Shown in pieces: positions 8,552 to 28,760 of a stretch of 64,000 nucleotides of DNA. Positions within the stretch are counted from its first letter, which is position 1. Every line of letters begins with the position of its first letter. The position numbers and the translations under genes were made by a program. The DNA comes from Salinivirgaceae bacterium. GTDB lineage: Bacteria; Bacteroidota; Bacteroidia; Bacteroidales; SZUA-534. Under the pieces are notes generated by a model that searched no databases, was not told the DNA's origin, and saw nothing but the letters and a program-made list of their open reading frames with translations. The DNA lies in assembly GCA_016342715.1 (NCBI GenBank), contig JAEINW010000001.1:5984-69983 (forward strand), given 5' to 3'.

Positions 8552-8558
8552 AAACAAT

Positions 8559-9353: not shown

Positions 9354-9405
9354 AATTAAAAATGATATTCTGCAAAATCTCATTTTTATTTTTTAATATT
9401 AAGTT

Positions 9406-9413
9406 TACATTTG
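9406..9413 (+). promoter_or_regulatory. Candidate Bacteroidota -7 box (TAnnTTTG)
   Basis: TACATTTG, 40 nt upstream of the ATG at 9453. Confidence 0.4.
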
Positions 9414-9452
9414 AAGAATTAGCATAATTATAATAATAAAATCTGTAATTAA

Positions 9453-10847: not shown

Positions 10848-10868
10848 CTATTTTCTAAAAACTATTGA

Positions 10869-10900
10869 AAAGAGTTTAATTATTAAAGATTAAACTCTTT
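10869..10900 (+). terminator. Rho-independent terminator after ugd
   Basis: AAAGAGTTTAAT (10869-10880) pairs with ATTAAACTCTTT (10889-10900), followed by a T-rich tail. Confidence 0.6.
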
Positions 10901-10921
10901 TGTCATTACAGATAATACTAT

Positions 10922-10929
10922 TACTTTTG
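10922..10929 (+). promoter_or_regulatory. Candidate -7 box (TAnnTTTG) for the rfb unit
   Basis: TACTTTTG, 32 nt upstream of the rfbA ATG. Confidence 0.4.
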
Positions 10930-10960
10930 CTGCATTAAATCTAAACCAAATTATTATACT

Positions 10961-11833
10961 ATGAAAGGCATTATTCTAGCAGGTGGAAGTGGAACCAGAC
11001 TTTATCCAATAACTAAAGGGGTTTCAAAGCAGTTGTTGCCCATTTATGATAAACCTATGATTTATTATCCGCTATCGGTATTAATGTTGGCAGGTATTAA
11101 AGATATTTTAGTAATATCAACTCCAGAAGATTTGCCAGGGTTTAAACGTTTGCTAGGTTCTGGAGCCGATTGGGGGATTAATTTAGCATATGCAGAACAA
11201 CCTTCTCCCGATGGACTTGCTCAAGCCTTTATTATCGGAGATGAATTTATTGGAGATGATGATGTTTGTTTGGTACTGGGCGATAATATTTTTTACGGTC
11301 ATGGCTTACCAGAATTGTTAAGAAATGCTCGTAAAAATGTAGAAGAAGATAAGCAAGCTACCGTTTTTGGCTATTATGTTAATGACCCAGAACGTTATGG
11401 GGTTGCTGAGTTTGATGAAAATGGTAAAGTAACTTCCATTGAAGAAAAGCCGGAAAATCCGAAATCAAATTATGCGGTGGTTGGTTTATACTTTTATCCT
11501 AATAGCGTAATTAAAGTAGCAAAAAATATTAAACCTTCGCATCGAGGAGAGTTGGAAATTACTACGGTAAATCAAGAATACCTCAAAAAAGATACACTGA
11601 AAGTTGAACTCATGGGTCGTGGTTTTGCTTGGCTTGATACAGGAACTCATGAAAGCTTGATTGAAGCAAGTAACTTTATTGAAACCTTACAAAAGCGAAC
11701 AGGTTTAATGGTGGCATGTCCTGAAGAGATTGCTTATGATCGTGGTTTTATAACAAAAGAACAAGTGGCTAAATTAGCTGAGCCATTGAGTAAGAATGCT
11801 TATGGACAGTATTTGATGAAATTAGGGAAATAG
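10961..11833 (+). CDS. rfbA: Glucose-1-phosphate thymidylyltransferase
   Basis: [34 protein letters not shown], 290 aa. Confidence 0.95.
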
Positions 11834-13210
11834 ATGACTTCAGATGAATTAAAACATATTATCTCACAAGGTGAAGGTGAAAAAGTTGAGTTCAAACTTT
11901 CATACAATAATGAAACCATTGAAACGCTTAATGCTTTTGCAAATACCAAAGGGGGATATGTTTTAATTGGGATTTCCAATAAGAACTCAATTGTTGGTGT
12001 TGATATTAATGAAGAATCTATTCAGAATTGGTTGAATGAAATCAAGCAAAAAACGTCACCTTCTATAATGCCTGATTGTGAAGATATTACTATTTCAGGT
12101 AAAACTGTTGTTGTTTTTAGGATACAGGAATATCCTATAAAGCCCATTGCTTTAAAAGGACGGTATTTCAAACGAATTAAAAACTCAAACCATCTCTTAT
12201 CTTTAAATGAAATAAGCGATTTGCATTTGCAATCACTTAAAGTGTCTTGGGATAGCTATGAAAATACTTTTTCTACGATAGATGATCTTGATTTACTTAA
12301 GGTTTCCTCATTTATTAATAAAGTGAATAAGGGAGGACGGTTTAAATTGACTTCTGATCCAATAATAGCGCTTGAAAAATTGAGGCTGGTTGAAGACAAT
12401 AAACCTACCAATGCAAGTGTACTCCTGTTTTCTAAAAATGAAATAGAACATACCATTCATGTGGGGCGATTTAAAACCCCTGAAATGATTATGGATGACA
12501 AGATTTATAAGGTCACTTTATTTGAGGCAGTAGAACTTGTTATGCAATATCTTTATAATTGGATAAAAGTTGCTTTTGAAATTACTGGAAAGAAAACACA
12601 AAGAGACGAAATATTTGAATACCCCATACCTGCATTAAGGGAAATCGTTTTAAATTCCATTGTTCATAGAGATTACACTAGTCCCATTGATATACAAATT
12701 AAAATATTTGATAATAGCATTACCGTTTATAATCCGGGAAAATTGTTTGGAGACTTAACTATTGAAGAACTTAAAACCGATTATTATCAGTCTAATGCTC
12801 GAAACCGGTTAATTTCTGAGGTATTTTACCTTACTCATGATATAGAAAAGTATGGGAGTGGTTTTACCAGAATACGGAAAGAAATCAGTTCGTACCCTAC
12901 TATGGAGTTTAATTATAAGGAAATGGGCAATGGTTTTTTTGTAGAATTGAAATATAAAGAACAAAAAACATCCAATATTACCCCCATAAAGACCCCCATA
13001 AAGAATGTTGAGATAACAGAACTTGAAGAAAAAATAATACATAAAATAATTGAAAATCCTAAAATTTCAATAAATAAGATAGGTGAGAAGCTGGGAATTG
13101 GAAGGGATACGGTTGCAGAATACATCAATAAACTTAAAAGAAAAGGCATTTTATTGAGAGAAGGAAGTAAACGTGGTGGAAGTTGGAAAGTAATTGATAA
13201 ACTTATTTAA
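11834..13210 (+). CDS. COG2865-type putative regulator: AlbA_2/Schlafen-like N-domain, ATPase-like domain and C-terminal winged HTH
   Basis: N-terminal block GEGEKVEFKLSY...FANTKGGYVLIG, central LREIVLNSIVHRDY, C-terminal ISINKIGEKLGIGRDTVAEYINKLKRKGIL. The ATG directly abuts the rfbA stop. Confidence 0.7.
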   Translation: MTSDELKHIISQGEGEKVEFKLSYNNETIETLNAFANTKGGYVLIGISNKNSIVGVDINEESIQNWLNEIKQKTSPSIMPDCEDITISGKTVVVFRIQEYPIKPIALKGRYFKRIKNSNHLLSLNEISDLHLQSLKVSWDSYENTFSTIDDLDLLKVSSFINKVNKGGRFKLTSDPIIALEKLRLVEDNKPTNASVLLFSKNEIEHTIHVGRFKTPEMIMDDKIYKVTLFEAVELVMQYLYNWIKVAFEITGKKTQRDEIFEYPIPALREIVLNSIVHRDYTSPIDIQIKIFDNSITVYNPGKLFGDLTIEELKTDYYQSNARNRLISEVFYLTHDIEKYGSGFTRIRKEISSYPTMEFNYKEMGNGFFVELKYKEQKTSNITPIKTPIKNVEITELEEKIIHKIIENPKISINKIGEKLGIGRDTVAEYINKLKRKGILLREGSKRGGSWKVIDKLI

Positions 13211-13261
13211 TAATTTAAAAAGAAATAATAATTTTGGAAGCCCTAAATTGCTAATTAATTT

Positions 13262-13831
13262 ATGAAAGTTATAGAAACGAATATACCGGATGTAAAAATA
13301 ATAGAACCTCGAGTTTTTAAAGATGAAAGAGGTTATTTTTTTGAATCCTTTAATGAACAACGTTTTTTCGAGAAAGTACTGAAAACTTCTTTTGTTCAGG
13401 ACAACGAATCGTTGTCAACAAAAGGGGTTTTGCGAGGATTGCATTATCAGATGCCTCCATACGCTCAATCAAAATTAGTTAGAGTCATAAAAGGGGAAGT
13501 GTATGATGTAGCCGTTGATATCAGGAAAGGCTCACCCACATTTGGACAATATACAGGAGTTTTATTAACGGAACGGAATAAAAAGCAGTTTTTTATTCCA
13601 AGGGGATTTGCTCATGGTTTTGTAGTTTTAAGTGAGGAAGCAATATTTTTTTATAAATGTGATAATTATTATGCTCCTGAATCAGAAAGAAGTATAAACT
13701 TTGATGACCCTGATTTAAATATTGACTGGAATATTGATTTAAAAAAACTCATGCTTTCTGATAAAGATAAAAAGGGAGTGAGTTTCAAAGAAGCCGATTT
13801 GTTTGATTTTAATACAAATTTGTATGAATAG
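13262..13831 (+). CDS. rfbC: dTDP-4-dehydrorhamnose 3,5-epimerase
   Basis: VLRGLHYQ...SKLVRV, PRGFAHGF, 189 aa. Confidence 0.95.
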   Translation: MKVIETNIPDVKIIEPRVFKDERGYFFESFNEQRFFEKVLKTSFVQDNESLSTKGVLRGLHYQMPPYAQSKLVRVIKGEVYDVAVDIRKGSPTFGQYTGVLLTERNKKQFFIPRGFAHGFVVLSEEAIFFYKCDNYYAPESERSINFDDPDLNIDWNIDLKKLMLSDKDKKGVSFKEADLFDFNTNLYE

Positions 13832-14702
13832 CAGAAAAATCTTGGTAACCGGAAGTAATGGGCAGTTGGGGAGTGAATTGCGTAAAATTGCCAATGACTA
13901 TGATGATTTTACATTTCATTTTACCGATGTAGCTGAATTAGACATTACCAATTATGAAGCCTTAGTTAATTTTGTAAAAGATAAAAAAATAAATACAATA
14001 ATTAATTGTGCAGCCTATACCGCAGTTGATAAAGCTGAAGATGAGAAAGAATTAGCATTAAAGATTAATGCTGAGGCAACTGCAAATCTTGCAAAAATAA
14101 TGCATGATACTAAGGGTCAATTAATTCATGTGTCTACGGATTATGTATTTAAGGGAAACAATTTTTTGCCTTACTCGGAAATTGACAAAATCGACCCCAT
14201 TAATTATTATGGTTTTTCTAAACTTAAGGGTGAAGAAGAGATATTTAAATTCCCAATAAATGCTCAGATAATCAGAACTTCTTGGTTGTACTCCTCGTTT
14301 GGAAATAATTTTGTTAAAACCATATTACGGGTAGCTAAAGAAAGAGATGAGTTAAAAGTGGTTTTTGATCAAATAGGTACACCCACCTATGCGGCAGATT
14401 TAGCCCAAGCCATAATGACTATTTTAGCAAAAGAAAAAGCGGCAAGTAGTGTTCCATCCGTTTATCATTATTCCAACGAAGGAGTGGCTTCATGGTTTGA
14501 TTTTGCGATAGCAATAGTGGAGGGATCAAGCAGTAAATCAAAAATATTACCAGTCAGAAGTTCAGAATTCCCAACCATAGCAAATCGACCAAACTATTCG
14601 GTGCTTGATAAAACTAAGATTAAAAAAGAATATAATTTGGAAATCCCTTATTGGAAAGATTCTTTACAAGTATGTTTAAAAAAATTGAATAATGATGAGT
14701 AA
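13824..14702 (+). CDS. rfbD: dTDP-4-dehydrorhamnose reductase
   Basis: ILVTGSNGQLG, STDYVF. The track start at 13803 is TTG; the ATG at 13824 overlaps the rfbC stop. Confidence 0.9.
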   Translation: MNSRKILVTGSNGQLGSELRKIANDYDDFTFHFTDVAELDITNYEALVNFVKDKKINTIINCAAYTAVDKAEDEKELALKINAEATANLAKIMHDTKGQLIHVSTDYVFKGNNFLPYSEIDKIDPINYYGFSKLKGEEEIFKFPINAQIIRTSWLYSSFGNNFVKTILRVAKERDELKVVFDQIGTPTYAADLAQAIMTILAKEKAASSVPSVYHYSNEGVASWFDFAIAIVEGSSSKSKILPVRSSEFPTIANRPNYSVLDKTKIKKEYNLEIPYWKDSLQVCLKKLNNDE

Positions 14703-15705
14703 AGCCATATTAGTTACCGGTGGAGCCGGATTTATTGGTTCTAATTTTGTTCCGTATTTTCTAAATAAATATTCAGAATATCATTTGATAAACTTGGATA
14801 AATTAACCTATGCAGGGAATTTGGATAACCTGAAAGAAATAGAAAAAAGCGAACGATATACTTTTGTACAAGGAGATATTTGCAATCGTGAATTGGTGGA
14901 ATATCTTTTTAAAACCTTTGACATTAGAGGAGTGATTCATTTTGCAGCCGAATCGCATGTGGACAATTCTATATCAGGACCTGAAGTTTTTATTCAAACT
15001 AACATAAATGGGACATTTACTTTGATTGATGTTGCCAGAAAATATTGGATGAATGCTCCTTTCGAATATAAAGAGGGCTATGAAAAATGTCGTTTTCATC
15101 ACATTTCTACTGATGAGGTTTATGGTACTTTAGGTGAAACTGGATTGTTTGAAGAAGTTACTCCTTATGCACCAAATTCACCCTATTCAGCGGCCAAAGC
15201 CAGTTCTGATTTTATTGTTAGATCATATCATCATACCTATGGAATGGATGTAACAACTAGCAATTGTTCAAATAATTATGGTCCAAAGCAGCATAATGAA
15301 AAACTGATTCCCGTTATTATTCGTAAAGCCATAAACGGTGAAAATATTCCCATTTATGGCGATGGAAAGAATATACGTGATTGGTTGTATGTTTTGGATC
15401 ATTGTACAGGAATTGATTTGGTTTATCATACTGGCAAATCTGGAGAAACGTATAATATTGGTGGAAGAAATGAAAAAACAAATATGGATATCGTAAACCA
15501 TATTTGTGAATATTTAGATAAAAAACAACCCAAAACTCAAGGATCATACAAAGATCAAATTTCCTTTGTACAAGATAGAGCAGGCCATGATAGGCGCTAT
15601 GCCATTGATGCAACAAAAATAGAAAAAGAATTGGGCTGGAAGGCTGAAGAGAATTTTGAGAATGGTATTATTAAAACCATTGAGTGGTATTTAAATAATC
15701 TATAG
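14692..15705 (+). CDS. rfbB: dTDP-glucose 4,6-dehydratase
   Basis: ILVTGGAGFIGSNF, STDEVYG, YSAAKASSD (YxxxK). Confidence 0.95.
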   Translation: MMSKAILVTGGAGFIGSNFVPYFLNKYSEYHLINLDKLTYAGNLDNLKEIEKSERYTFVQGDICNRELVEYLFKTFDIRGVIHFAAESHVDNSISGPEVFIQTNINGTFTLIDVARKYWMNAPFEYKEGYEKCRFHHISTDEVYGTLGETGLFEEVTPYAPNSPYSAAKASSDFIVRSYHHTYGMDVTTSNCSNNYGPKQHNEKLIPVIIRKAINGENIPIYGDGKNIRDWLYVLDHCTGIDLVYHTGKSGETYNIGGRNEKTNMDIVNHICEYLDKKQPKTQGSYKDQISFVQDRAGHDRRYAIDATKIEKELGWKAEENFENGIIKTIEWYLNNL

Positions 15706-15708
15706 AAT

Positions 15709-16998
15709 ATGTACAATAAAATAGTAAACAAAGAAGAAATTATATCAGTTATTGGTCTTGGGTATGTAGGATTACCAATAGCATTAGAATTTGCAAAGGT
15801 AGCAAAGGTAATTGGTTTTGATATCAAACCAGACCGTGTTGAATTAATGAAACAAAATATTGATCCAAGTAAAGAATTGGAGTCTCATGAATTCGAAGGA
15901 TGTGACATTGAATTTTCCGCAAATGCTGAGGATATTAAAAAAGCTAAATTTCATATTGTTGCTGTACCAACACCTATTGATGATCATAATCAGCCAGATT
16001 TAACGCCCGTAATTGCCGCATCTAAAACAGTAGCTAGAGCTTTAAAAAAAGGTGATTATGTGGTTTACGAATCTACAGTTTATCCAGGTTGTACAGAAGA
16101 AGATTGTGTACCTATTTTGGAAGAAATCTCGGGATTAAAAATGGGAGAAGATTTTAAAGTAGGATTTTCACCAGAAAGAATAAATCCAGGAGATAAAGTA
16201 AATACCTTAACCACTATTACAAAAGTTGTATCAGGTAGTGATGATGAAGCATTAGAGAATATAGCCAAAATTTATGAAATGGTTATTAAGGCTGGTGTTC
16301 ACAGAGCCCCATCTTTGAAAGTAGCTGAAGCAGCAAAAATAATTGAAAATACGCAGCGCGATGTAAATATTGCATTAATGAATGAATTATCGTTGATATT
16401 CAATAGAATGAATATTAATACATTCGACGTATTAGAAGCAGCTGGAACCAAATGGAATTTTTTGAAATTTTTCCCTGGTTTAGTAGGGGGGCATTGTATT
16501 GGTGTTGATCCTTATTATTTACTTTACAAAGCGAAAGAATTAGGGTATCATGCAAAAATGATAGATTCAGGTAGATTTATTAATGACAGTATGGGAGCTT
16601 ATGTTGCCAAACAAACTGTTAAAAAAATAATAGCAGCCGATAAAAATGTAAAAGATGCGCGTGTATTAGTAATGGGGGTGACCTTTAAGGAGGATGTTTC
16701 AGATATTAGAAACTCAAAAGTAGTTGATGTTGTAAACGAATTAAAATCATATAGTGTAAATGTGGATGCCATTGATCCACATGCATCGAAACAGGAGATA
16801 ATGGAAGAATATGGTTATGAAATTCGGGATAAACCGGAAGGTAAATACGATGCAATAATTGTAGCAGTTCAGCATGAAGAATACAAGAATTTATCGGAAG
16901 ATTACTTTAAAGGATTATTGAGTGAAAAAGGGTTGTTTATAGACCTTAAAGGTATTTATAAAGACAAGGTTAAGGATTTGAATTATTGGAGTTTGTAA
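15709..16998 (+). CDS. UDP-N-acetyl-hexosamine 6-dehydrogenase, copy 2 (paralog of 4790..6079)
   Basis: Same length (429 aa) and no indels relative to copy 1. My hand alignment gives about 33 substitutions. Same GLGYVGLP and GGHCIGVDP motifs. Confidence 0.85.
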
Positions 16999-17030: not shown

Positions 17031-18335
17031 ATGATGAAAAAAATAGTATATATAGGAATGAGTGCGGATATTATTCATCCAGGGCATTTAAATATAATAA
17101 AAGAAGGAGTTAAACTTGGAGAAGTTACTGTAGGTCTATTAACAGATACTGCAATTGCAAGTTATAAAAGATTACCCTATCTAAGTTATGATCAGAGGAA
17201 ATTAATTGTCGAGAGTTTAAAGGGTGTCGATAAGGTGATTCCTCAAGACTCCTTAGATTATGTTCCAAATTTGCTTATTGTAAAACCCCATTTTGTTGTG
17301 CATGGTGATGATTGGAAGGAAGGTATTCAACAAGTTACGAGGCAACGAGTTATAGATACTATTACTGATTGGGGGGGGAAAGTGATTGATATTCCTTATA
17401 CTCAAGGAATTTCATCAACAAAATTGAATGAAAATATTAAAGCAATTGGAACAACCCCTGAAATTAGAATGAAAAGACTTAGACGGTTAATTCAGGCAAA
17501 ACCAATTGTTCGAATCTTAGAATCTCATAGTGGATTAACAGGACTTATTGCTGAGAATATTAAGGTAGATATTAATGGTAAAGAACAAGAGTTTGATGGC
17601 ATGTGGTCAAGTAGTTTGACAGATTCGACATCTAAGGGAAAACCTGATATTGAAGCTGTTGATATTACAACAAGAATGCATGGATTAAATGACACCTTAG
17701 AATGTACTACCAAACCAATAATTTATGATGGAGATACAGGAGGAAAGTTAGAACATTTTGTATTTACTGTTAGGACACTAGAAAGACACGGAATATCTGC
17801 TGTTATTATTGAAGATAAAACAGGATTAAAGAAGAACTCATTGTTTGGAACTGCAGTACCACAGACACAAGACACCATTGAAGATTTTTCAGAGAAGATT
17901 AAAGCTGGTAAAAATGCACAAGTGACAGATGATTTTATGATTATTGCCAGAGTTGAAAGCTTGATTTTAGGTAAATCTGTTGAAGAAGCATTGGAAAGAG
18001 CTCATGCATATGTTGGAGCTGGTGCTGATGCGGTAATGATTCATAGCAAGGAAAAAACAGGTTTGGATATTAAAGAGTTTTGTAAGTCTTTCAGAAAAAG
18101 TAATAAAAATACGCCTATTGTTGTTGTTCCATCAACGTTTAATCATATAACTGAAGAAGAATTTTCAACATGGGGAGTGAATATTGTTATTTATGCTAAC
18201 CATATGTTAAGAGCATCTTATCCAGCTATGGTTGATGTAGCAAAATCTATATTATCGAATGGTAGATCATATGATGCTAATGATAAATGCATGCCTATTA
18301 AGGAAATTCTTGAATTAATACCCGGCACAAAATGA
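17031..18335 (+). CDS. Bifunctional cytidylyltransferase / phosphoenolpyruvate mutase (Fom1-like architecture)
   Basis: N-terminal TagD-like domain (IIHPGH, VDKVIP, HGDDW, GISSTKL). The C-terminal domain carries the PepM signature EDKX5NS ([12 protein letters not shown]). The track start at 16986 is TTG inside the upstream gene; the ATG at 17031 gives MMKKIVYIG. Confidence 0.85.
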
Positions 18336-19474
18336 TAAAACCAGAACAGTTTTACAAATTGCTTCAAAGCAATGGAGTAGAATTTTTTACAGGAGTCCCC
18401 GATTCTTTATTGAAAGATATTTGTGCTTATATCACGGAAAAGACTAAGTATTCAAGACATATTATAGCAGCCAATGAAGGAAATGCTGTGGCTTTAGCAA
18501 GCGGTTATTATTTGGCAACAGAAAAAATTCCTTTAGTATATATGCAAAACTCGGGAATTGGAAATGCTATAAATCCATTATTGTCACTTGCGGATGAAGA
18601 TGTTTATAGTATCCCCATGTTGTTGATGATTGGTTGGAGAGGTGAACCTGGGATAAAAGATGAACCTCAACATATTAAACAAGGAAAGGTTACTCTAGGT
18701 GTTTTAGATGCTATGGGAATTGAATACGTAATATTGCCAGATTCTTTTAATGAGGCTCAAATAGTAATAGAAAAATCTATTCAAAGAATATCTCAAACAA
18801 AATGTCCATTTGCACTTATTGTTAAAAAAAACACCTTCGAAAGTTATTCACTAAATGAAGGCAGCACAAAAGTACTTTCTATTTCAAGGGAGAATGCTAT
18901 AAAGGTCATTGTTGATCATCTTGAAGAGGATGCAATTGTAGTCTCTACAACAGGTAAAGCATCACGAGAATTATTTGAATATAGAAGTCAAAAAGGGCAA
19001 GGTCATCAGAGGGATTTTCTAACTGTTGGTTCAATGGGACATGCTAATCAAATTGCACTGACTATTGCCTTAGAAAAACCGAATAGAAATGTTTATTGTT
19101 TTGATGGTGATGGTGCTGTGTTAATGCACACAGGTGGTATGGGTATCATTGGAGATTATAAACCTCAAAACTTAAAACATATAATTTTTAATAATGGAGC
19201 TCATGAATCTGTGGGAGGACAGCCGACAATTGGATTTGATGTTGATTTTTCCAAATTGGCAAAAGGGTTTAATTACAGCACTACTTTAAAAGCTTCATCT
19301 AAGGAAGAAATTGAAAAATACATGCCTTTATTGAAAAATACACAAGGACCTATATTACTTGAGATATGGGTATCTATGGATTCTAGGAAAGATTTAGGTA
19401 GACCTACAATTTCACCTAAAAATAATAAAAATGATTTTATGAGATTTTTACAAGATGGATCAAATAATATTTGA
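18332..19474 (+). CDS. Phosphonopyruvate decarboxylase (ThDP-dependent)
   Basis: ThDP motif [13 protein letters not shown]...[14 protein letters not shown], ~380 aa. ATGA overlap with the PepM gene. Confidence 0.85.
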
Positions 19475-20588
19475 AGATAAAGACAATCTCAACAAAATTT
19501 CAATTTTATTAAGGCAAAAAAATATAGAAAGAGTTTTTGTTGTTTCTGGAAAAAAATCATATGATAATTCTTCAGCACGAGAAATTATCCAACCCATCTT
19601 GACTGGTTTTTCGGTATTTAGATTTTATAATTTTGAAGAAAATCCCAAAGTTGAGGATGTAATTAGGGGTGTGAATTTTTTTAATGAAAATAATTGTCAG
19701 ATAATAGTTGCTATTGGAGGAGGTAGTGTTATCGATATGGCAAAGTTGATCAAGGCTTACCATGATAATTTTATTGATATAAAATCAAAAATTTCAAACA
19801 GTCGAGTTGGGGAGTGTTCGAAGGAATTAATAGCAATTCCAACTACAGCTGGTTCTGGAAGTGAAGCAACTCAATTTGCAGTTGTTTATATTAATAAAAT
19901 TAAATATTCTGTTTCAAATGTGAATCTTTTACCTAATATTGTTCATTTGGTACCTGAATTAACATATTCTACATCTCCTTATTTGACAGCCATTACAGGC
20001 TTAGATGCTTTTTCTCAAGCAATTGAATCGTGGTGGAGTGTGAATTCTACAGAAGAATCAATAGCTTATTCTAAAGAAGCAGTAAAGATTATTTACGAAA
20101 ATTTGGGTTCTGCCATTGAGAATAATAGAGGTGCAAAAAGACTAGTTCAGCAAGCATCTTATTTGGCAGGAAAAGCTATAAATATTGCGAAAACTACAGC
20201 ACCTCATGCTTTATCTTATGGCTTTTCAACTTATTGCAATTTACCGCATGGTCACGCAGTTTCAATATTTCTACCTAATTTTGTGGAGTTACACACCAAA
20301 ATTAATATAAATAATTGTAATGATTCTAGAGGTGTTGAATATGTGAATGATGTTATGAACAGTATAGCAGCACTTATGGGGACGGCAATAGAATTTTTAG
20401 CTGATAAAATTTATATGTTTATTAATGATTGTGGAATTTCAATTAATTATAAAGAATTAAGTATTACTAGGCAAAGGTTTGAAAAATCGATATCAAATAT
20501 TAATCAAGAAGGACTTAAAAATAATCCGGTTATAATAAATTCTGAATTTATTTCTGAATTGTATTTTTCTAAATTAAATAATAAGTAA
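19455..20588 (+). CDS. Group III iron-containing alcohol dehydrogenase, putative phosphonoacetaldehyde reductase
   Basis: AIGGGSVIDMAK, PTTAGSGSEAT, LPHGHAV. Overlaps the decarboxylase gene by 20 nt. Confidence 0.7.
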   Translation: MDQIIFEDKDNLNKISILLRQKNIERVFVVSGKKSYDNSSAREIIQPILTGFSVFRFYNFEENPKVEDVIRGVNFFNENNCQIIVAIGGGSVIDMAKLIKAYHDNFIDIKSKISNSRVGECSKELIAIPTTAGSGSEATQFAVVYINKIKYSVSNVNLLPNIVHLVPELTYSTSPYLTAITGLDAFSQAIESWWSVNSTEESIAYSKEAVKIIYENLGSAIENNRGAKRLVQQASYLAGKAINIAKTTAPHALSYGFSTYCNLPHGHAVSIFLPNFVELHTKININNCNDSRGVEYVNDVMNSIAALMGTAIEFLADKIYMFINDCGISINYKELSITRQRFEKSISNINQEGLKNNPVIINSEFISELYFSKLNNK

Positions 20589-20617
20589 TTGTATTCGGAG
20601 ATAAATAATATCATATA

Positions 20618-21775
20618 ATGAAAAGCAAATTAGAATACATATTAAAGCACAACCTCTTAATACAACAGATTTATAAAATAACCCTAAGTCTGTTTTTTAG
20701 ATTTGTTGGTTTGTTTATAAGAACAGATGAAAAACTTATTCTTTTAAATTCTTTTGGTGGACGAAAGTATAATGATAGCCCTAAAGTTATTTTTGAATAT
20801 ATGTCAAACCATGTTTTGTATAAAGACTTGACTTATGTATGGGCTTTTGAGAGTCCGCAAGATTTTGATATTCTAAATGCAAAAAAGATTAAAATCGATT
20901 CATGGACATACTTTATAACTGCTTTGAAAGCTAAATATTGGATATCGTCAGTAAACATTGAAAGAGGTTTAAAATTTAAAAAGAAAAATACAATTTATCT
21001 TAACACATGGCATGGTGCTGGAACAAAAAAAATAGGGAACGCTGTTGCTGGACGAAAAGATTTTGATTTTTCGAATGTTAATATAATGCTTGTTCAAAGC
21101 GTATATGAAAAGAAAATTTTTAGAAAAGATTTTCTAGTTCAGAATAATGATTTTTTACTTAGTGGATTTCCTAGAAGTGATGAACTATTTTACACAGATA
21201 AGGATCAGATAGAGCAATATAAAAAGGAACTAAATATTCCATCAAACAAAAAAATATTACTTTATGCACCTACATGGAGAGATAGTATAAATGGTGGGCA
21301 AAGTTATGATATAAAACCTCCAATAAATATAAATAAGTGGCAAAACCAATTAGGTGATGAGTATATTGTATTATTTAGAACGCATGCATTTACTACTAAG
21401 GTACTAAATATGAAGTTCAATGATTTTGTTCGTGATGCATCCTCTTACGAAAATCTTAATCATCTACTAAAAATAGCTGATATTGTTATAACTGATTATT
21501 CCACCTTAGTTTTTGATTATTCTATTCTTGAAAAGCCATTTTTATGTTTTGGTTATGATTATTGTAGATATAAGGAGGAAAGAGGATTTTACCTTGATAT
21601 CGAGAAAGAATATCCTTCAGGTGTGTTGAAAACAGAGGATGAAGTCTTAAAGTATATTATGGAGATGGATTATGAACACGAAGTTGAAAAGGTGCGTAAA
21701 TTTAAAATGAAATTTATTGAAGCAGGAGGAAAAGCAACGGAGTTATCAGTAAAAAGAATGTTTAATATCAGTTAG
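20618..21775 (+). CDS. TagF/TagB-family CDP-alcohol phosphotransferase (CDP-glycerol glycerophosphotransferase family)
   Basis: NTWHGAGTKKIG and LLYAPTWRDS family motifs, 385 aa. Confidence 0.7.
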   Translation: MKSKLEYILKHNLLIQQIYKITLSLFFRFVGLFIRTDEKLILLNSFGGRKYNDSPKVIFEYMSNHVLYKDLTYVWAFESPQDFDILNAKKIKIDSWTYFITALKAKYWISSVNIERGLKFKKKNTIYLNTWHGAGTKKIGNAVAGRKDFDFSNVNIMLVQSVYEKKIFRKDFLVQNNDFLLSGFPRSDELFYTDKDQIEQYKKELNIPSNKKILLYAPTWRDSINGGQSYDIKPPININKWQNQLGDEYIVLFRTHAFTTKVLNMKFNDFVRDASSYENLNHLLKIADIVITDYSTLVFDYSILEKPFLCFGYDYCRYKEERGFYLDIEKEYPSGVLKTEDEVLKYIMEMDYEHEVEKVRKFKMKFIEAGGKATELSVKRMFNIS

Positions 21776-21784
21776 ATCCTAAAT

Positions 21785-22897
21785 ATGAATATATTAATCA
21801 ATTCCGGCAGGATACCTCCATTTTTAACAACGCGTAGAAAACTAATTTTAGATTTAATACATAAAGGTCATAAAGTTATTTTGACTGGTTATCAAGAGGG
21901 ATTTGAAGAAGAAGTTGAAAAAATTGGAGCATCTCTTATTGTGGTTCCATTTGACAGAGCTGGCTTTAACCCAATTAAAGATATGGTTCAAGTCTATCGA
22001 TATTACAAAATAATCAAAAAATATAACATAGACATAGTACATAGTTATACTATTAAACCTAATGTGTTTGGAAGTATTGCAGCTAAATTAAGTGGAGTTA
22101 AAGAAGTCTATCCAACTTTAAATGGGGTAGGATATGCGTTTTCAGGACAAGGGTTAAAAGCAAAAGTAGTTCGGTTGTTTGCCTCAATACTGTATTTTAT
22201 CGCCTTTAAATGCAGTATAAAAATTTTTTTTCATAATTCTGATGACATTAATCTAATGGTAAATTCGCATTTAGTAAAAAGAAATAAATGTGTTTTAACA
22301 TTGGGTTCAGGTATTGATATGGAATACTATAAGGAACAAGAAATGCCAAATTCTATCTCGTTTTTATTAATATCTAGGTTGTTAAGAGCTAAAGGAATTA
22401 TGGAATACTTGAAAGCTGCCAAATTTGTAAAAGAAAAGTACCCAGATGTTGAATTTAATTTAGTAGGTCCAATTGATCCTAATCCTACTGGAATTAAGCT
22501 GTCAGATATTCAGGATTATCTGGATAATGATATAATAAAATATCATGGTCCTCAAGATGATGTTCGTCCGTTTATTAAAGGCTCTTCAGTTTTAGTATTG
22601 CCTTCATATAGGGAGGGATTACCTCATACTATATTAGAGGCAATGTCTATAGGTAGAGCAATTTTGACTACGAGTGCACCCGGGTGCAAAGAAACTGTAG
22701 AGGATGGAGTTAATGGCTTTCTAGTAAAGCTATATAGTAGTTCTGATCTAAAAGAAAAAATAATAGAGATGATTGAGAATCCAGAAAAAGTTATTGAAAT
22801 GGGAAAACAATCAGTTTTACTTGCTAAAGATCGATTTGAGGTTAGTATAGTAAATAATATAATATTAAGTACTATGGGACTTAATATATCAAATTAA
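21785..22897 (+). CDS. Glycosyltransferase family 4
   Basis: C-terminal EX7E-type block REGLPHTILEAMSIGRAILTT. Confidence 0.8.
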   Translation: MNILINSGRIPPFLTTRRKLILDLIHKGHKVILTGYQEGFEEEVEKIGASLIVVPFDRAGFNPIKDMVQVYRYYKIIKKYNIDIVHSYTIKPNVFGSIAAKLSGVKEVYPTLNGVGYAFSGQGLKAKVVRLFASILYFIAFKCSIKIFFHNSDDINLMVNSHLVKRNKCVLTLGSGIDMEYYKEQEMPNSISFLLISRLLRAKGIMEYLKAAKFVKEKYPDVEFNLVGPIDPNPTGIKLSDIQDYLDNDIIKYHGPQDDVRPFIKGSSVLVLPSYREGLPHTILEAMSIGRAILTTSAPGCKETVEDGVNGFLVKLYSSSDLKEKIIEMIENPEKVIEMGKQSVLLAKDRFEVSIVNNIILSTMGLNISN

Positions 22898-22900: not shown

Positions 22901-23878
22901 ATGATGAATTATAAAGACTTAAATTTTGATAAGGAATCATGTTTTCTAGTTACAGGAGCAGCTGGTTTTATTGGTTCAAATTTAGTTGAGGTATTGCTAG
23001 ATATGGGATATAAGGTGAAAGCCTTAGATAATTTATCAACAGGGAAAAAAGAAAATATTGAATTGTTTATTGATAATTCAAATTTTTCATTTTTACAAGG
23101 CGATATTGTTGATTTGAGTACTTGCATTGAAGCTTGTAAAGGTGTTCATTTTGTTTTACACCAAGCAGCTTGGGGTAGTGTGCCTAGAAGTATTGAAATG
23201 CCACTTTTTTATGAGGAAGTGAATATTAGAGGCCAACTAAATATGTTGGAAGCAGCGCGCCAATGTGGTGTACAAAAATTTGTTTATGCTTCAAGTTCAT
23301 CTGTTTATGGCGATGAGCCAAATTTGCCTAAACAAGAAGGAGTTGAGGGAAATTTATTATCTCCTTATGCCCTAACAAAAAAAACAAATGAGGAATATGC
23401 TAGATTATATACAAAGCTTTATGGTTTAGATACTTATGGTTTGCGGTATTTTAATGTTTTTGGAAAAAGGCAAGACCCAGACGGTGCTTATGCTGCTGTA
23501 TTACCTAAATTTATTAAGCAACTATTAAATAATGAGCAGCCAATAATTAATGGAGATGGTAAGCAAAGCAGAGATTTTACGTATATAGATAATGTAATTG
23601 AAGCTAATTTAAAAGCTTGTTTTGCGCCTACAGAAGTTGCTGGCGAAGCTTTTAATATTGCGTTTGGTGGTAGAGAATATTTAATTGATATTTATTATCA
23701 TCTTTGTAAAGCTTTAAATACAGATATTAATCCTATTTTTGGTCCAGATAGGACCGGCGATATAAAGCATAGTAATGCTTCAATTGAGAAAGCGCAAGAA
23801 ATGTTGGGGTACAATCCACTATGGAGTTTTGAGCGGGGAATTAAGGAAGTCATAACTTGGTATAAAGATAATTTATAA
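22901..23878 (+). CDS. SDR-family UDP-HexNAc(A) 4-epimerase (WbpP/TviC-like)
   Basis: LVTGAAGFIGSNL, SPYALTKKTNE (YxxxK), 325 aa. Pairs functionally with the TviB-like dehydrogenase. Confidence 0.75.
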   Translation: MMNYKDLNFDKESCFLVTGAAGFIGSNLVEVLLDMGYKVKALDNLSTGKKENIELFIDNSNFSFLQGDIVDLSTCIEACKGVHFVLHQAAWGSVPRSIEMPLFYEEVNIRGQLNMLEAARQCGVQKFVYASSSSVYGDEPNLPKQEGVEGNLLSPYALTKKTNEEYARLYTKLYGLDTYGLRYFNVFGKRQDPDGAYAAVLPKFIKQLLNNEQPIINGDGKQSRDFTYIDNVIEANLKACFAPTEVAGEAFNIAFGGREYLIDIYYHLCKALNTDINPIFGPDRTGDIKHSNASIEKAQEMLGYNPLWSFERGIKEVITWYKDNL

Positions 23879-24975
23879 TGAATGAGCCTATAAGAATATT
23901 GCAAGTTTTAGCTGGTATGAACCGTGGTGGTTCAGAGGCTTTTATTATGAATGTTTATAGAAATATTGATAGGAGCAAGGTTCAATTTGATTTTATTCTT
24001 TATAGAAAAGAAGAGTGTGATTTTAACGAAGAAATTCGACAATTAGGAGGTAGAATATTTTGGGTTCCCAGATATACAGGAAAAAATCATTTTAAATTTA
24101 AAAATGCTTGGAATAAATTCTTTAAAGAACATTCAGAGTATAAAATTATTCACGGTCATGTTCGCAGTGCAGCTTCAATATATTTAAGTATTGCAAGAAA
24201 ATATGGGTTAAGAACGATTGCTCATAGCCATAGCACTTCTTCACGCGGAAATATTTTGGAACAATTAGGTAAAAAGATATTGCAATATCCTATCAGAAAA
24301 ATAGCAGATCATTTATTTGCTTGTTCTGAAAAGGCAGGGAAATGGTTATTTGGAAAGAATAGGAATTTTAAAGTTATTAATAATGCAATAGAGGTTGATA
24401 AATATATTTTTGAAAAGTCAGTTAGAGCTGCAAAAAGAGATGAATTGAAAATTAAGGATAAATTTGTTATCGGTCATATAGGTACATTTACTCATCCAAA
24501 AAATCACTCTTTTTTAATTGATGTATTTAAAGAGATTCACAAAAAATATAGTAATGCTGTTTTATTATTAATTGGAAAAGGAGAATTGCAATCAATAATT
24601 GAAAAAAAGGTCAATTATTTAGGATTAACTGAGAATGTTATTTTTACAGGAGTTCGGGCTGATATTCCAGAATTATTACAAGCAATGGATGTATTTGTAT
24701 TCCCTTCATTATTTGAAGGATTACCAGTAACCTTAATCGAAGCACAAGCGTCTGGTTTAAAGTGTGTTGTATCTGATTCTATAACAAAAGAAGTTGGGAT
24801 TACTGATTGTCTAGAATTTGTATCATTAAAAGATTCACCTGCTATCTGGTCTAATAAGATTATAGATAGTTTCAGTTGTTTTATTAGAAAGAATAATTAT
24901 GAAGAGGTTAAAACTAATGGTTATGACATTCAGGCAACTTCAAACTGGCTTGAATTTTTTTATATGTCTTTATAA
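23878..24975 (+). CDS. Glycosyltransferase family 1/4
   Basis: FEGLPVTLIEAQASGLKCVVSD. Confidence 0.8.
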   Translation: MNEPIRILQVLAGMNRGGSEAFIMNVYRNIDRSKVQFDFILYRKEECDFNEEIRQLGGRIFWVPRYTGKNHFKFKNAWNKFFKEHSEYKIIHGHVRSAASIYLSIARKYGLRTIAHSHSTSSRGNILEQLGKKILQYPIRKIADHLFACSEKAGKWLFGKNRNFKVINNAIEVDKYIFEKSVRAAKRDELKIKDKFVIGHIGTFTHPKNHSFLIDVFKEIHKKYSNAVLLLIGKGELQSIIEKKVNYLGLTENVIFTGVRADIPELLQAMDVFVFPSLFEGLPVTLIEAQASGLKCVVSDSITKEVGITDCLEFVSLKDSPAIWSNKIIDSFSCFIRKNNYEEVKTNGYDIQATSNWLEFFYMSL

Positions 24976-25011: not shown

Positions 25012-26271
25012 ATGGTGATTGTTGGTATAATAGGTTGCTTATTAGTGTTATTGTTTGTTCATACTGTATTAAAAGATTTTAAATCCCCTCCATTTATACT
25101 TGGTGCATTATGGCTGTTTGCCTATGTCTCTTTATATATATTTAAAGGTGGTATTGCCAATTTTAACAGTATCTATTATCTTTCATTTTTGATTGGACTA
25201 TGCTTTTTTGTTTTTGGTTTTTTTTTAAAAGTTGGAAATCGAAATAGGATTAATAGTAACATTATATTTGAAAGAAAAAGTTATATACGATTTAAGCTGC
25301 CATATATACAGATTTTTTTATTGATAGCTTTTATTTTATTTCTTATTTATATAATAAAAGCAGCTCTTTTTGTATCTAAAGAATTTGATTTTAATTTTTG
25401 GCGTACTCTTAGTCGAGGTCGAAAAACTGGAGATTTAAATATCCCTCTAGTGGTAGAATATTCTAGAAGTGCAATTATTGCACTTTCTACTGTTTGTGGT
25501 ATAATATATTTTAGTAATTCTTCGAAATTAAACAGGCGTCATTTTATATTTTCTTCAATAATAGCTTTGTTTTATGTTGTGACTGCTGGGAATAGAGGAG
25601 CAATTTTTCTTTGGGTATTGTCATTAACATTTAGTTATTTAATTATTAAAAATTTTGATAATAGAAAGCTATTTTCCATACTTTGGAAAATGGCTCTAAT
25701 TATTATAGGAATTTTTGTAGTTACTAATTTTGCAAAGTATGTTTATACAGATCAAAGCGATCCACTTAAATTTTCAATAAATCTTATTGGACATTATTTT
25801 TCATCCTCAACTGTTGCTTTTGTTGAATGGATGAAATTACCCAGAGACTATCTATTTGGGGCAAATACATTTCGTTTTTTTTTAGCAATTCTTGATGCAA
25901 TTGGTATGGATGTCAAGGTACCTGAATTAATCCAAGAAGAAATACATTTTTATGGTGATAAAACAAATATTTATACAGTATTGCATTATTATACCAAAGA
26001 TTTTGGGTTGTTATATGCATTTGTAATGCAATTATTAATGGGGATGTTCTATGGTGTTTTATATACTCATTCAACTTTATCAAAGAAGCTAAATATTTTT
26101 TATATTGCTTTATTATCTATTTTATATTTTCCTTTAATTAATCAATTTTTTGATGATAAGTACTTTTCTATATTATCATCGTGGATACAATTGTTTTTTT
26201 GGATATGGTTGTTTACAAGAAAGTTATTTTTAACAGGTGATGAAATCGTAGTAGATGATGAAATAACTTAA
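25012..26271 (+). CDS. Polytopic membrane protein, putative repeat-unit polymerase (Wzy)
   Basis: About 10 or more hydrophobic segments and no soluble domain. Its position between glycosyltransferases and Wzx fits a polymerase. Confidence 0.55.
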   Translation: MVIVGIIGCLLVLLFVHTVLKDFKSPPFILGALWLFAYVSLYIFKGGIANFNSIYYLSFLIGLCFFVFGFFLKVGNRNRINSNIIFERKSYIRFKLPYIQIFLLIAFILFLIYIIKAALFVSKEFDFNFWRTLSRGRKTGDLNIPLVVEYSRSAIIALSTVCGIIYFSNSSKLNRRHFIFSSIIALFYVVTAGNRGAIFLWVLSLTFSYLIIKNFDNRKLFSILWKMALIIIGIFVVTNFAKYVYTDQSDPLKFSINLIGHYFSSSTVAFVEWMKLPRDYLFGANTFRFFLAILDAIGMDVKVPELIQEEIHFYGDKTNIYTVLHYYTKDFGLLYAFVMQLLMGMFYGVLYTHSTLSKKLNIFYIALLSILYFPLINQFFDDKYFSILSSWIQLFFWIWLFTRKLFLTGDEIVVDDEIT

Positions 26272-26415: not shown

Positions 26416-27321
26416 GTGAAAACAGTTCAAGTATTACTATCATCATATAATGGTGAAAAATATATTCTTCAACAATTAGGTAGTATTTTTAAGCAGAAAG
26501 GCGTGGATGTTTTTTGTTTGGTAAGGGATGATGGTTCAAAGGATAATACTCTTAATATATTATTAGATTGTAAAAAGGTCTATAAAAATTTGGAGGTTAT
26601 AGTAGGAGAGAATATCGGTTATGGAGCTAGTTTTTTGGAACTAATTAAGCTTTCTGGTGATTTTGATTTTTATTCATTCTCAGACCAAGATGATGTATGG
26701 GAGCCCTTAAAGCTAATAGCAGCAGTTGAACACATAAAAAAAATGGAGAATGTTCCTACTATGTATTTTTCTAATTTAACAATTGTTGATAATGAATTAA
26801 ATAAAATTGGAGTCTTACATAATATCGGCAATCCTATTCCAGATGATAAGTTAACAGCATTAGTTCAAGGATTTACTCATGGATGTACTATGGTTTTTAA
26901 TAAAAATTCCCGAAATTTAGTTAATAGCTATAAGCCACTTCAGAGTTATGCTCATGACTTTTGGATTCCTCTAATTCACTTTTTTGTTGGAAAAATTATA
27001 TACGATAAAAATTCATTTATAAATTATCGTCAACATGATAATAATGTATTTGGACAAAAACGCTCTCTATTAAGATTATTGATGCTTAAATTAACTTTTT
27101 TCTCTGAAAAGAAAAATTATTATTCATTGTTGGCTAAAGATTTGATTCTGGGATTTAAAAATATTTTAAATACAGAAGATTATCAAAACCTTAAGGATAT
27201 ATCCGAATATAGTAACACTTTTAGTGGCAAGCTAAAGCTATTGTTTAATAGGAAAATTAAAAGAAATACTTTTAAGGGAACAATTATTTTAAAGTTCTTA
27301 ATATTATTTTCAAAATTTTAG
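26416..27321 (+). CDS. Glycosyltransferase family 2
   Basis: VLLSSYNGEKYI, VRDDGSKDNT, FSDQDDVW (DxD). GTG start. Confidence 0.8.
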   Translation: MKTVQVLLSSYNGEKYILQQLGSIFKQKGVDVFCLVRDDGSKDNTLNILLDCKKVYKNLEVIVGENIGYGASFLELIKLSGDFDFYSFSDQDDVWEPLKLIAAVEHIKKMENVPTMYFSNLTIVDNELNKIGVLHNIGNPIPDDKLTALVQGFTHGCTMVFNKNSRNLVNSYKPLQSYAHDFWIPLIHFFVGKIIYDKNSFINYRQHDNNVFGQKRSLLRLLMLKLTFFSEKKNYYSLLAKDLILGFKNILNTEDYQNLKDISEYSNTFSGKLKLLFNRKIKRNTFKGTIILKFLILFSKF

Positions 27322-27338: not shown

Positions 27339-28760
27339 ATGGTGGCAGACAAGCTTTTTCAAGTATTAAAAAATCTTTCATATACAATAATATCAAATCT
27401 GGTATCATTACTAGTTTCAGTGTTTGTGATTCTTATTATTCCTAAATTAATTGGAGTTGTAGAATATGGTTATTGGCAATTATATTTATTTTATACCCTG
27501 TATGTTGGTTTTCTTCATTTTGGTTGGAATGATGGCATTTATTTAAGGTATGGAGGTGCCGATTATAATTCTTTAGACAAACGGTTGTTTTTTTCGCAGT
27601 TTCATATGTTGGTTATATTGCAAATTTTTGTTGCAATTGTTACAGCCATAATTACATATTTTTATGTTGAGGATGGTAATCGAACCTTTATCTTTTACAT
27701 GGTCTCTTTATGTTTGGTTATTACAAACATAAGATGGATGCTAATATTTGTACTTCAGGCTACAAATAGAATAAAGGAGTATGCATTTATTACTTTAATA
27801 GGTAGGATATTGTATATAAGTATAATTTCAGTTTTATTAATAAGTGGTTTTAGGAATTATAAATTAATGATTTGGGCAGATGTTATCGGAAAAGCTATCT
27901 CATTATTATATGCAATATATTGCTGCAAGGACATTGTATTTAGGAAAATCTCCTCATTCTATTTTAGTTTTAATGAAACCATTCAAAATATTTCTGCGGG
28001 TGTTAAATTAATGTTTGCAACAATAGCAAGTATGTTAGTAATTGGAGTTGTAAGATTGGGAATTGAACGGACTTGGGATGTAAGTACCTTTGGTAAGGTG
28101 TCATTAACATTAAGTATCTCAAACATGATGATGATATTTATTAATGCTGTTGGTATAGTTATTTTCCCTTTATTAAGGCGTGCTAATCAAGATAGATTAC
28201 CAAACATTTATACATCTATAAGAGATTTATTAATGGTTATGCTACTTGGGATACTTATAATTTATTTTCCATTAAAAGAAGTGCTTGCTTCCTGGTTACC
28301 TAAATATGCCGAAAGTTTACGGTATATGGCTTTACTTTTTCCCATTTGTATATATGAGGGTAAAATGGCTCTTTTAATAAATACCTATTTAAAGACTTTA
28401 CGCAAGGAGCAATTAATGCTAAAGATCAATATTGCTACTCTAATTTTGAGTACCGTAATAACTTTTGTATTTACAGTTGTGCTCAATAATCTTAATCTGG
28501 TTATAGTTTCTATTGTATTTCTTCTGGCTTTTAGAGCAGTGTTAGCAGAATATTTTCTTTCTAAAATATTAAAAGTACACCTTGGTAAGGATATTATTTT
28601 AGAACTTATATTGACTCTTGTTTTTATTGCATCCGGTTGGTATATTGATTCATGGTTAACTGTCATTGTTTATGGTGTATTCTATTTACTATATATACTT
28701 GTTAAGTATAAAGTTATAATTCAAGCAATAAATGATTTAAAAAAAATAGCAAAGGAGTAA
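27339..28760 (+). CDS. Wzx-type (MOP superfamily) oligosaccharide flippase
   Basis: 473 aa, about 12-14 hydrophobic segments, typical flippase layout. Confidence 0.7.
   Translation: MVADKLFQVLKNLSYTIISNLVSLLVSVFVILIIPKLIGVVEYGYWQLYLFYTLYVGFLHFGWNDGIYLRYGGADYNSLDKRLFFSQFHMLVILQIFVAIVTAIITYFYVEDGNRTFIFYMVSLCLVITNIRWMLIFVLQATNRIKEYAFITLIGRILYISIISVLLISGFRNYKLMIWADVIGKAISLLYAIYCCKDIVFRKISSFYFSFNETIQNISAGVKLMFATIASMLVIGVVRLGIERTWDVSTFGKVSLTLSISNMMMIFINAVGIVIFPLLRRANQDRLPNIYTSIRDLLMVMLLGILIIYFPLKEVLASWLPKYAESLRYMALLFPICIYEGKMALLINTYLKTLRKEQLMLKINIATLILSTVITFVFTVVLNNLNLVIVSIVFLLAFRAVLAEYFLSKILKVHLGKDIILELILTLVFIASGWYIDSWLTVIVYGVFYLLYILVKYKVIIQAINDLKKIAKE

Follow-up and report, generated by a model that had tools for sequence, protein, structure and literature searches.

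Our analysis of 64,000 nucleotides of contig JAEINW010000001.1 from a marine Salinivirgaceae bacterium (hereafter the window, meaning this whole stretch) suggests that four genes at positions 17031-21775 form a phosphonoglycan module inside a Wzx/Wzy surface-polysaccharide locus. The genes encode a cytidylyltransferase (CyTase) domain fused to a phosphoenolpyruvate (PEP) mutase (PepM), a phosphonopyruvate decarboxylase (Ppd), a PhpC-type iron-dependent alcohol dehydrogenase (ADH) and a 385-amino-acid transferase of family PF04464, related to the teichoic acid enzyme TagF. We propose that the first three proteins make 2-hydroxyethylphosphonate (HEP) and activate it with cytidine monophosphate (CMP) to CMP-HEP, and that the fourth passes the HEP group to a glycan; for the whole pathway through glycan transfer our confidence is moderate. 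The parts of this pathway are individually known, and what is new here is the candidate donor specificity of a clade within PF04464. The locus itself is a member of a recurrent, automatically annotated class.

The four open reading frames (ORFs) are co-directional on the plus strand and tightly packed, as an earlier interpretation from the letters alone (the sequence-only reading) had stated. ORF calls and a check of the junctions confirmed the positions: the first two genes overlap by 4 nt (18332-18335), the second and third by 20 nt (19455-19474), and a gap of 29 nt (20589-20617) precedes the transferase gene. All motifs quoted in that reading are present in the translations, and its four domain assignments hold in Pfam and NCBIfam searches and in structure-sequence comparisons. 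The mechanical ORF of the first gene opens with a TTG at 16986, but the supported start is the ATG at 17031, because the N-terminus then aligns residue for residue with the beginning of the Fom1 CyTase domain. Proteins with 100% identity to the ADH and to the transferase are recorded at NCBI for a Salinivirgaceae (Bacteroidales) metagenome-assembled genome (MAG), under the names phosphonoacetaldehyde reductase and CDP-glycerol glycerophosphotransferase family protein, respectively. A promoter and terminator scan of the window, based on a consensus ill-suited to Bacteroidota, returned 127 promoter-like sites where 119 were expected.

The first protein has the features of a Fom1-type fusion. PF01467 spans amino acids 11-133 and carries the HxGH motif, PF13714 spans amino acids 150-408 with the PepM motif EDKX5NS, and the CyTase domain is much closer to the corresponding domain of Fom1 (5X3D; 199 bits, 61% identity) than to TagD (1COZ; 50 bits). 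Fom1-like is therefore a better label for the domain than the earlier "TagD-like". Fom1 cytidylylates HEP (PMC6697681), and the fused domain is predicted to make CMP-HEP from cytidine triphosphate (CTP) and HEP. Similarity to Fom1 does not amount to proof that the domain is specific for HEP: in loci for 2-aminoethylphosphonate (AEP), the PF01467 domains fused to PepM are nearly as similar to Fom1 (50-57% identity), and the sequence-only reading had overstated what this likeness indicates when taken alone. Such fusions are common, since PF01467-Ppm fusions make up 23.6% of Ppm enzymes (PMC6697681), and in the polysaccharide B locus of Bacteroides fragilis one occurs together with a transaminase (PMC8942020). 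The PEP mutase domain scores 416.6 bits against TIGR02320 (cut-off 319.55) and 152 bits against the mussel PEP mutase 1M1B. Ppd scores 498.4 bits against TIGR03297 (cut-off 312.5) and contains the thiamine diphosphate-binding motif GDG...NN (GDGAVLMH).

The third enzyme is predicted to reduce phosphonoacetaldehyde to HEP. For PhpC, Lys157, Thr256, Tyr264 and Arg349 were predicted to bind HEP, and the metal ligands are Asp191, His195, His260 and His274 (PMC13576164). When mapped by spacing rather than by alignment with the reference protein, K150, D184, Q188, T247, H251, Y255 and H265 of the window ADH are spaced exactly as the published PhpC residues, while the arginine counterpart R353 lies 88 residues past H265 instead of 75 as in PhpC. 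Across family alignment A1, the mapped clamp and ligand residues vary little or not at all. At the second metal ligand (D184-x3-Q188) glutamine is nearly invariant in this alignment; the modelled Paraburkholderia PhpC has histidine there and sulfoacetaldehyde reductase has glutamine (PMC13576164). The sequence-only reading had remarked that the ADH occupies the slot which in AEP loci belongs to the transaminase, and the gene order of the sister locus L150, with CyTase-PepM, Ppd and then Aminotran_5, bears this out. As a side observation, a PhpC-like ADH with 43% identity to the window ADH lies in a capsule locus of Natronoflexus pectinivorans (L168, 10001-11131) with no pepM or ppd within 10 kb and is preceded by a Schlafen-family fragment (9293-9859); it may be the remnant of a lost cassette or an ADH for another substrate.

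The association of the first three genes is widespread. The ADH family comprises 5998 proteins at E ≤ 1e-20, and about 25 of the best 80 ADH-anchored genome loci have CyTase-PepM and Ppd directly beside the ADH, the orthologues of which share 27-47% identity with the window ADH. Here and in the transferase scan described below, counts are counts among the matches listed and not population frequencies. These loci come from Bacteroidota, Planctomycetota, Ignavibacteria, Actinomycetota, Spirochaetia, Elusimicrobia, Clostridia, Chloroflexi, Cloacimonadota and Pseudomonadales.

The transferase is a member of PF04464 by its domain, by its GT-B-like TagF fold and by both catalytic histidines. Aligned with Staphylococcus epidermidis TagF (177 bits), it covers TagF residues 352-707 only, and its H132, in the motif WHGAGTKK, falls on the catalytic H444 and H256 on H584; it is in the H132 column that the TagF entry 3L7J, which carries H444N, differs. 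An AlphaFold2 model of the protein (predicted local distance difference test 86, predicted template modelling score 0.86) has TagF (3L7M/3L7J; TM-score 0.81) as its first Foldseek match, with Cps3D and TarL next. Against the TarF, TarL and TarB equivalogs it scores 198, 91.7 and 64.7 bits and misses the respective cut-offs of 550, 1000 and 500. From its family and its neighbours, we predict that CMP-HEP is the donor from which the enzyme transfers the phosphonyl group of HEP onto a hydroxyl of a repeat-unit sugar, setting CMP free.

The best evidence for this donor comes from the relatives of the transferase, which share 48-73% identity with it and in several cases lie on the same contigs as ADH matches. 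A metagenome scan seeded with an alignment of close relatives gave 80 loci, the neighbourhoods of which were classed by tblastn thresholds (with the window proteins, AEP transaminase, PntC and TagD as queries) and by Pfam spot checks. Of the homologues, 37 distinct ones are flanked on either side by at least 2.5 kb of sequence; 19 of these have a TagD-like cytidylyltransferase as neighbour, eight an AEP cassette (PntC, CyTase-PepM, Ppd, Aminotran_5), seven an HEP cassette and three none of these (L083, L141 and L144); L083 has a Gtp-like CDP-glycerol module 9 kb away. In a distance-based neighbour-joining tree of 86 sequences, all 21 HEP-linked loci, which contribute 18 distinct sequences, group together in a single clade (bootstrap 99/100), the AEP-linked transferases form a separate clade (100/100), and TagD-linked sequences fill the rest of the tree. 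By the tblastn classing, TagD neighbours occur in the sister clades but beside no member of the HEP-linked one. The HEP-linked clade unites Salinivirgaceae-type loci with rumen contigs the PepM of which is about 91% identical to that of Clostridia MAGs; because it mixes Bacteroidota and Clostridia contigs, the clade follows the donor module and not taxonomy. Gene order within it varies, with the transferase upstream of the cassette in L088 and L101. The TagD-linked relatives include Clostridium, Mesobacillus and Anaerosalibacter and occur in Wzy-type capsule loci, too. One of them, L170 from a Clostridium sp., is 57% identical to the window transferase. Nine residues (G135, T136, L158, Q160, F184, F191, T296, V298 and F308) are fixed in the HEP clade and essentially absent from TagD-linked sequences, and they adjoin the invariant WHG, GFPR and DYS motifs. 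The AEP-type loci L143, L147, L149-L151, L156 and L158 have two cytidylyltransferases, a stand-alone PntC (PF12804) and the PepM-fused PF01467 domain (e.g. L150, 9974-15471), and PntC starts 6-7 nt past the TagF-like gene or, in L143, 3.6 kb downstream.

A tblastn search with the window transferase found no match in the 80 ADH-anchored loci, which could be taken to mean that the link to TagF is not conserved. We rejected this interpretation as a sensitivity artefact, because hidden Markov model and Pfam searches found more divergent PF04464 genes beside many of the cassettes. The encoded proteins are only 13-25% identical to the window transferase and keep both histidines. They were found in Salinivirgaceae (L001), Bacteroidales (L002), Ignavibacteria (L007), Actinomycetota (L008), Chloroflexi (L021), Clostridia (L023), Chitinophagaceae (L026, L028) and Pseudomonadales (L038), in the cultured isolate Saccharicrinis sp. 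FJH2 (L166, GCA_042436675.1) and in a metagenome contig of the Logan assembly of run SRR31444215 (L167). In L169 (locus positions 3744-9188), which comes from a 5.9-Mb genome, the four genes form an isolated group surrounded by housekeeping genes, outside any glycan locus. In at least six phyla, the three-gene HEP cassette has a distant PF04464 lineage or LicD next to it. Thus, the claim that the TagF-like enzyme uses the neighbouring CMP-phosphonate, while still a prediction, has gained strength from the match between clade and donor module and from these divergent pairings. The arrangement, which the sequence-only reading did not know to be described, is not rare: it recurs in many metagenomes and in the cultured Saccharicrinis isolate. 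HEP-glycans are known from two actinomycetes (PMC13576164). A homologue search seeded with an actinobacterial PF04464 protein returned only Acidimicrobiia-type metagenome proteins. Beside HEP cassettes there is a large, mostly Acidimicrobiia-type family of PF04464-like proteins (P0241-P0360), which is often missed by precomputed Pfam matches; many of its members carry the JGI label "YidC/Oxa1 family membrane protein insertase", very likely a mis-annotation.

The module lies in a glycan locus in which every called gene between 9.4 and 32.3 kb is on the plus strand, with short gaps (Table 1). A polymerase, a flippase-like protein, two family 4 glycosyltransferases (GT4) and one of family 2 (GT2) on one strand identify it as a Wzx/Wzy-dependent locus. 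The syntenic locus L081 from a second Salinivirgaceae MAG repeats the order of dehydrogenase and then cassette and has PF01943 (Wzx) at the position of our Wzx-like protein. The GT4 gene that follows the transferase gene is found 9-61 nt downstream of the TagF-like gene also in L081, L082, L086 and L087, and a GT4 of PF13477 architecture follows TagF-like homologues in L083, L084 and L141. Its product could either make the acceptor sugar or glycosylate the product after HEP addition. The Pfam scan covered nearly all window ORFs of at least 110 amino acids. Among these there is no radical-SAM/Fom3, HppE/Fom4, FomD, HEPD/MpnS or AEP transaminase, in agreement with the sequence-only reading, which had noted the absence of Fom3 and Fom4. 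Within the 64 kb of the window, PF01467 occurs only in fusion with PepM; there is no TagD or other stand-alone PF01467 gene, and RmlA is the only other nucleotidyltransferase. Among the scanned ORFs of the glycan locus, neither an ABC exporter nor a LicD or sulfatase/EptA-type candidate for phosphonyl transfer was found. The ORF at 27339-28760, which has no Pfam match, was considered as an MpnS/HEPD-type HEP-tailoring enzyme and ruled out, being a protein with 11 transmembrane-like segments at the Wzx position. The 866-amino-acid membrane protein encoded behind it belongs to no Pfam family, gives a faint Wzy-like signal (TIGR04370, 1.5e-4) and is kept at the same position in L081 (17761-20352).

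Table 1 Genes and domains of the phosphonate module and of the surrounding glycan locus
Feature	Position	Strand	Basis
Ugd, RmlA, inserted Schlafen/AlbA_2 gene, RmlC, RmlD, RmlB, UDP-sugar dehydrogenase	9453-16998	+	Pfam
CyTase domain, amino acids 1-138 of the fusion, Fom1-type	17031-17444	+	PF01467 5.7e-12, HxGH motif IIHPGH
PEP mutase domain, amino acids 150-434 of the fusion	17478-18335	+	PF13714 3.6e-52, TIGR02320, EDKX5NS motif
Ppd	18332-19474	+	TIGR03297, PF02776 and PF02775
PhpC/FomC-type group III alcohol dehydrogenase	19455-20588	+	PF00465 (1e-34) and PF25137
TagF/TarF-like phosphotransferase, catalytic domain only, 385 amino acids	20618-21775	+	PF04464 4.9e-83
GT4 glycosyltransferase	21785-22897	+	PF13477 and PF00534
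Epimerase	22901-23878	+	Pfam/NCBIfam
Second GT4	23878-24975	+	Pfam/NCBIfam
Wzy-type polymerase	25012-26271	+	TIGR04370, 1e-33
GT2	26416-27321	+	Pfam/NCBIfam
Wzx-like protein, 473 amino acids	27339-28760	+	11 transmembrane-like segments, no Pfam match, position as PF01943 in L081
Polytopic membrane protein, 866 amino acids	28777-31377	+	11 transmembrane-like segments
Epimerase/reductase	31370-32257	+	Pfam/NCBIfam

In the pathway that we propose, the PEP mutase domain would convert PEP to phosphonopyruvate, and Ppd would decarboxylate the latter to phosphonoacetaldehyde, thereby pulling the unfavourable PepM reaction forward. The PhpC-type ADH would then reduce phosphonoacetaldehyde to HEP; these three steps are suggested by family membership and conserved synteny. 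The Fom1-like CyTase domain would join HEP with CTP to CMP-HEP, a phosphate-phosphonate anhydride, as the identity to the characterised Fom1 domain indicates. Since Fom3, Fom4 and FomD are missing and a TagF-like transferase and glycan genes follow, CMP-HEP is the predicted end donor. In the transferase, H132 (TagF H444) may act as the base that activates a sugar hydroxyl of the undecaprenyl-linked repeat unit; the hydroxyl would attack the phosphonate phosphorus and CMP would leave, giving the phosphonate ester sugar-O-P(O)(O-)-CH2CH2OH. The decorated repeat unit, most likely with one HEP per unit, would finally be flipped by Wzx and polymerised by Wzy. For transfer, flipping and polymerisation we rely on gene context and phylogeny only. 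On a broader scale, we consider it an even chance that PF04464 includes dedicated phosphonyl transferases, with a CMP-HEP clade and a CMP-AEP clade that diverged from users of CDP-glycerol around the catalytic histidine and with further distant lineages recruited to the HEP cassette.

Several observations weigh against this proposal. The transferase misses the TarF equivalog cut-off, and the ADH reaches only 135.8 bits against TIGR03405, the model for phosphonate-cluster ADHs (cut-off 423.7), which appears to represent a different ADH sub-lineage. Four cassettes (L011, L018, L042 and L077) have LicD in place of PF04464 and the remainder have no recognised transferase, so that PF04464 is a frequent but not an obligatory partner. 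Around L141 and L144, both situated in glycan loci, no cytidylyltransferase gene was found within about 4 kb; it follows that donors can come in trans, and a source of CDP-glycerol could sit outside the visible 64 kb. The clade-specific residues may be tied to the acceptor instead of the donor, and the match between clade and context could stem partly from co-inheritance of one ancestral gene block. The tree is a neighbour-joining tree, and the contexts were set by tblastn thresholds. The main rival explanation is an ordinary glycerol- or polyol-phosphate transferase that is fed by CDP-glycerol made elsewhere in the genome, while another enzyme handles HEP or CMP-HEP and the adjacency merely reflects a shared glycan operon; the nearest homologues outside the HEP clade (48-57% identity) are indeed paired with TagD or other CDP-polyol genes, and L141 and L144 illustrate that such transferases can use a donor encoded in trans. 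We nevertheless regard this explanation as unlikely. TagD accompanies the sister clades but not the HEP-linked clade, several unrelated PF04464 lineages independently adjoin the cassette, including the stand-alone module of L169, and the scanned ORFs of the locus offer no other phosphonyl transferase.

If the transferase does use CMP-HEP, the HEP group might still be built into the chain, where as a linker it would be the C-P counterpart of the glycerol phosphate found in teichoic-acid-like capsules. HEP retains a free 2-hydroxyl group, which the next glycosyltransferase could glycosylate (sugar-P-CH2CH2-O-sugar) or to which HEP could be added repeatedly to give poly-HEP; TagF-family enzymes include polymerases, and the recurrent PF13477 GT4 as immediate neighbour fits a transferase/glycosyltransferase pair acting in sequence. 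Incorporation into the chain seems improbable to us as a whole. Poly-HEP, which the sequence-only reading had raised, is disfavoured because the protein consists of the catalytic domain only and lacks the N-terminal region of the polymerase, because the locus is of the Wzx/Wzy type, with no ABC exporter among its scanned ORFs, and because TagD-linked relatives occur in Wzy-type capsule loci as well. It is very unlikely, in our view, that CMP-HEP is no glycan donor at all and is instead a transient intermediate or feeds a phosphonolipid or small molecule, with the TagF-like enzyme acting on a lipid or another non-glycan acceptor. CMP-HEP is a transient intermediate as the product of Streptomyces Fom1 (PMC6697681), and the L169 module lies outside any glycan locus, so that acceptors other than a capsule repeat unit are conceivable. 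Against this, the scanned window ORFs contain no Fom3, Fom4, FomD-like, HEPD/MpnS or lipid-synthesis gene, and the cassettes of the window, L081, L166 and L167 are embedded among glycosyltransferases, Wzx and Wzy. Decoration of the repeat unit with HEP by the PF04464 transferase thus remains the explanation that we favour.

Some further features of the window deserve mention. At the head of the glycan region (6161-9353) lie genes for an adenosine 5'-phosphosulfate (APS) kinase, a CitMHS/TrkA_C-type anion transporter with a sodium:sulfate symporter region and a CysQ-like protein of the inositol-monophosphatase family, which suggests a supply of 3'-phosphoadenosine 5'-phosphosulfate for a sulfated polysaccharide; the scanned window ORFs include no sulfotransferase. 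In the related locus L167 an APS kinase gene directly follows the TagF-like gene and a sulfotransferase gene is located farther along. Two UDP-sugar dehydrogenase paralogues (4790-6079 and 15709-16998), both of 429 amino acids, are 92% identical, and the second lies immediately upstream of the phosphonate cassette, likewise in L081. This pair points to a recent duplication or to a recombination footprint at the cassette boundary. Two Schlafen/AlbA_2-HATPase_c_4-HTH genes, one between rmlA and rmlC (11834-13210) and one past the locus (34937-36322), encode proteins with 29% identity and could be regulators or mark recombination hot spots. The nucleotide-sugar operon with which the window starts contains a gene of the 23S rRNA-intervening-sequence protein family (PF05635; 4354-4710). 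A second glycan locus (36419-46175) encodes a WecA-like PF00953 protein, a Wzy_C-Bac_transf fusion of 648 amino acids, a DegT aminotransferase, Wzx, a GT4, a GT2 and an O-antigen-ligase-like protein; between the two loci lie Fic and AAA_14 genes of the opposite strand (32307-34696).

Fom1 of Streptomyces wedmorensis, together with Fom2 and FomC, has the same architecture and the same early steps to HEP and CMP-HEP (PMC6697681). In the fosfomycin pathway, however, CMP-HEP is a transient compound that is methylated and epoxidised, whereas here the next genes are those for a TagF-like transferase and for glycan assembly. The HEP branch makes up 8.5% of ppm neighbourhoods, and isolated products are available from only two of its gene cluster families (PMC8942020). 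As of 2026, HEP on glycans is documented for two actinomycetes only (PMC13576164). HEP-glycan gene clusters have been characterised experimentally in Stackebrandtia (S. nassauensis DSM 44728) and Glycomyces (NRRL B-16210). The HEP-glycans of Glycomyces represent the product type predicted here, although they are actinomycete exopolysaccharides. In the Glycomyces HEP-phosphonoglycan study of 2014 (J Bacteriol), HEP was reportedly ester-linked to a hexose and to glycerol, and we know of no transferase that has been identified for actinomycete HEP-glycans. The AEP phosphonyl-tailoring (Pnt) pathway with its PntC cytidylyltransferases, and polysaccharide B of B. fragilis, likewise involve a CMP-activated phosphonate for a cell-surface glycan. 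Those loci differ from ours in having a transaminase in the ADH slot, and the transferase proposed in the literature is LicD-like and not a PF04464 protein; in our tree and neighbourhood classing, an AEP-linked clade of the same TagF-like subfamily does exist. The steps after cytidylyl activation have been called enigmatic, and only LicD-like enzymes were proposed for the transfer (PMC6697681). In the openly readable full-text literature we found no paper that links PF04464, TagF, glycerophosphotransferases or teichoic acids to phosphonates, and the supplements of phosphonate papers that we searched contain nothing on PF04464 or LicD.

TagD/TagF, TarF and TagB of wall teichoic acid synthesis and the TagF-like capsule enzymes Cps3D and Bcs3 of Gram-negative bacteria follow the same logic of a cytidylyltransferase and a CMP-releasing transferase, and in size the window transferase matches the single-addition enzymes TarF and TagB. 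In contrast to the phosphonate ester predicted here, teichoic acid enzymes form phosphodiesters, and their context is an ABC transporter instead of Wzx/Wzy. A proposed precedent for a non-polyol donor in PF04464 is the TagF-like CD0244 of Clostridioides difficile, for which transfer of phosphothreonine from CDP-threonine onto a sugar of the flagellin type A glycan was proposed (PMC10714395). This role was deduced from mutants, and CD0244 differs from our enzyme in its phosphate-ester donor and its protein-linked N-acetylglucosamine acceptor.

In conclusion, the TagF-like clade that follows the donor module is a concrete candidate for the enzyme attaching phosphonates to bacterial glycans. Its TagD- and AEP-linked relatives at about 50% identity are natural controls, and the nine candidate specificity residues are suitable for mutagenesis. 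Should the prediction fail, the locus would still be an ordinary, automatically annotated member of the HEP branch. If PF04464 does include dedicated phosphonyl transferases of several lineages, as outlined above, the family would be a major attachment enzyme so far missing from our picture of phosphonoglycan synthesis in bacteria of at least six phyla. Because esters of phosphonates withstand phosphatases and phosphodiesterases, HEP-decorated capsules could matter for resistance to phages or grazers, and they could also contribute bound phosphonates to marine and gut high-molecular-weight organic matter.

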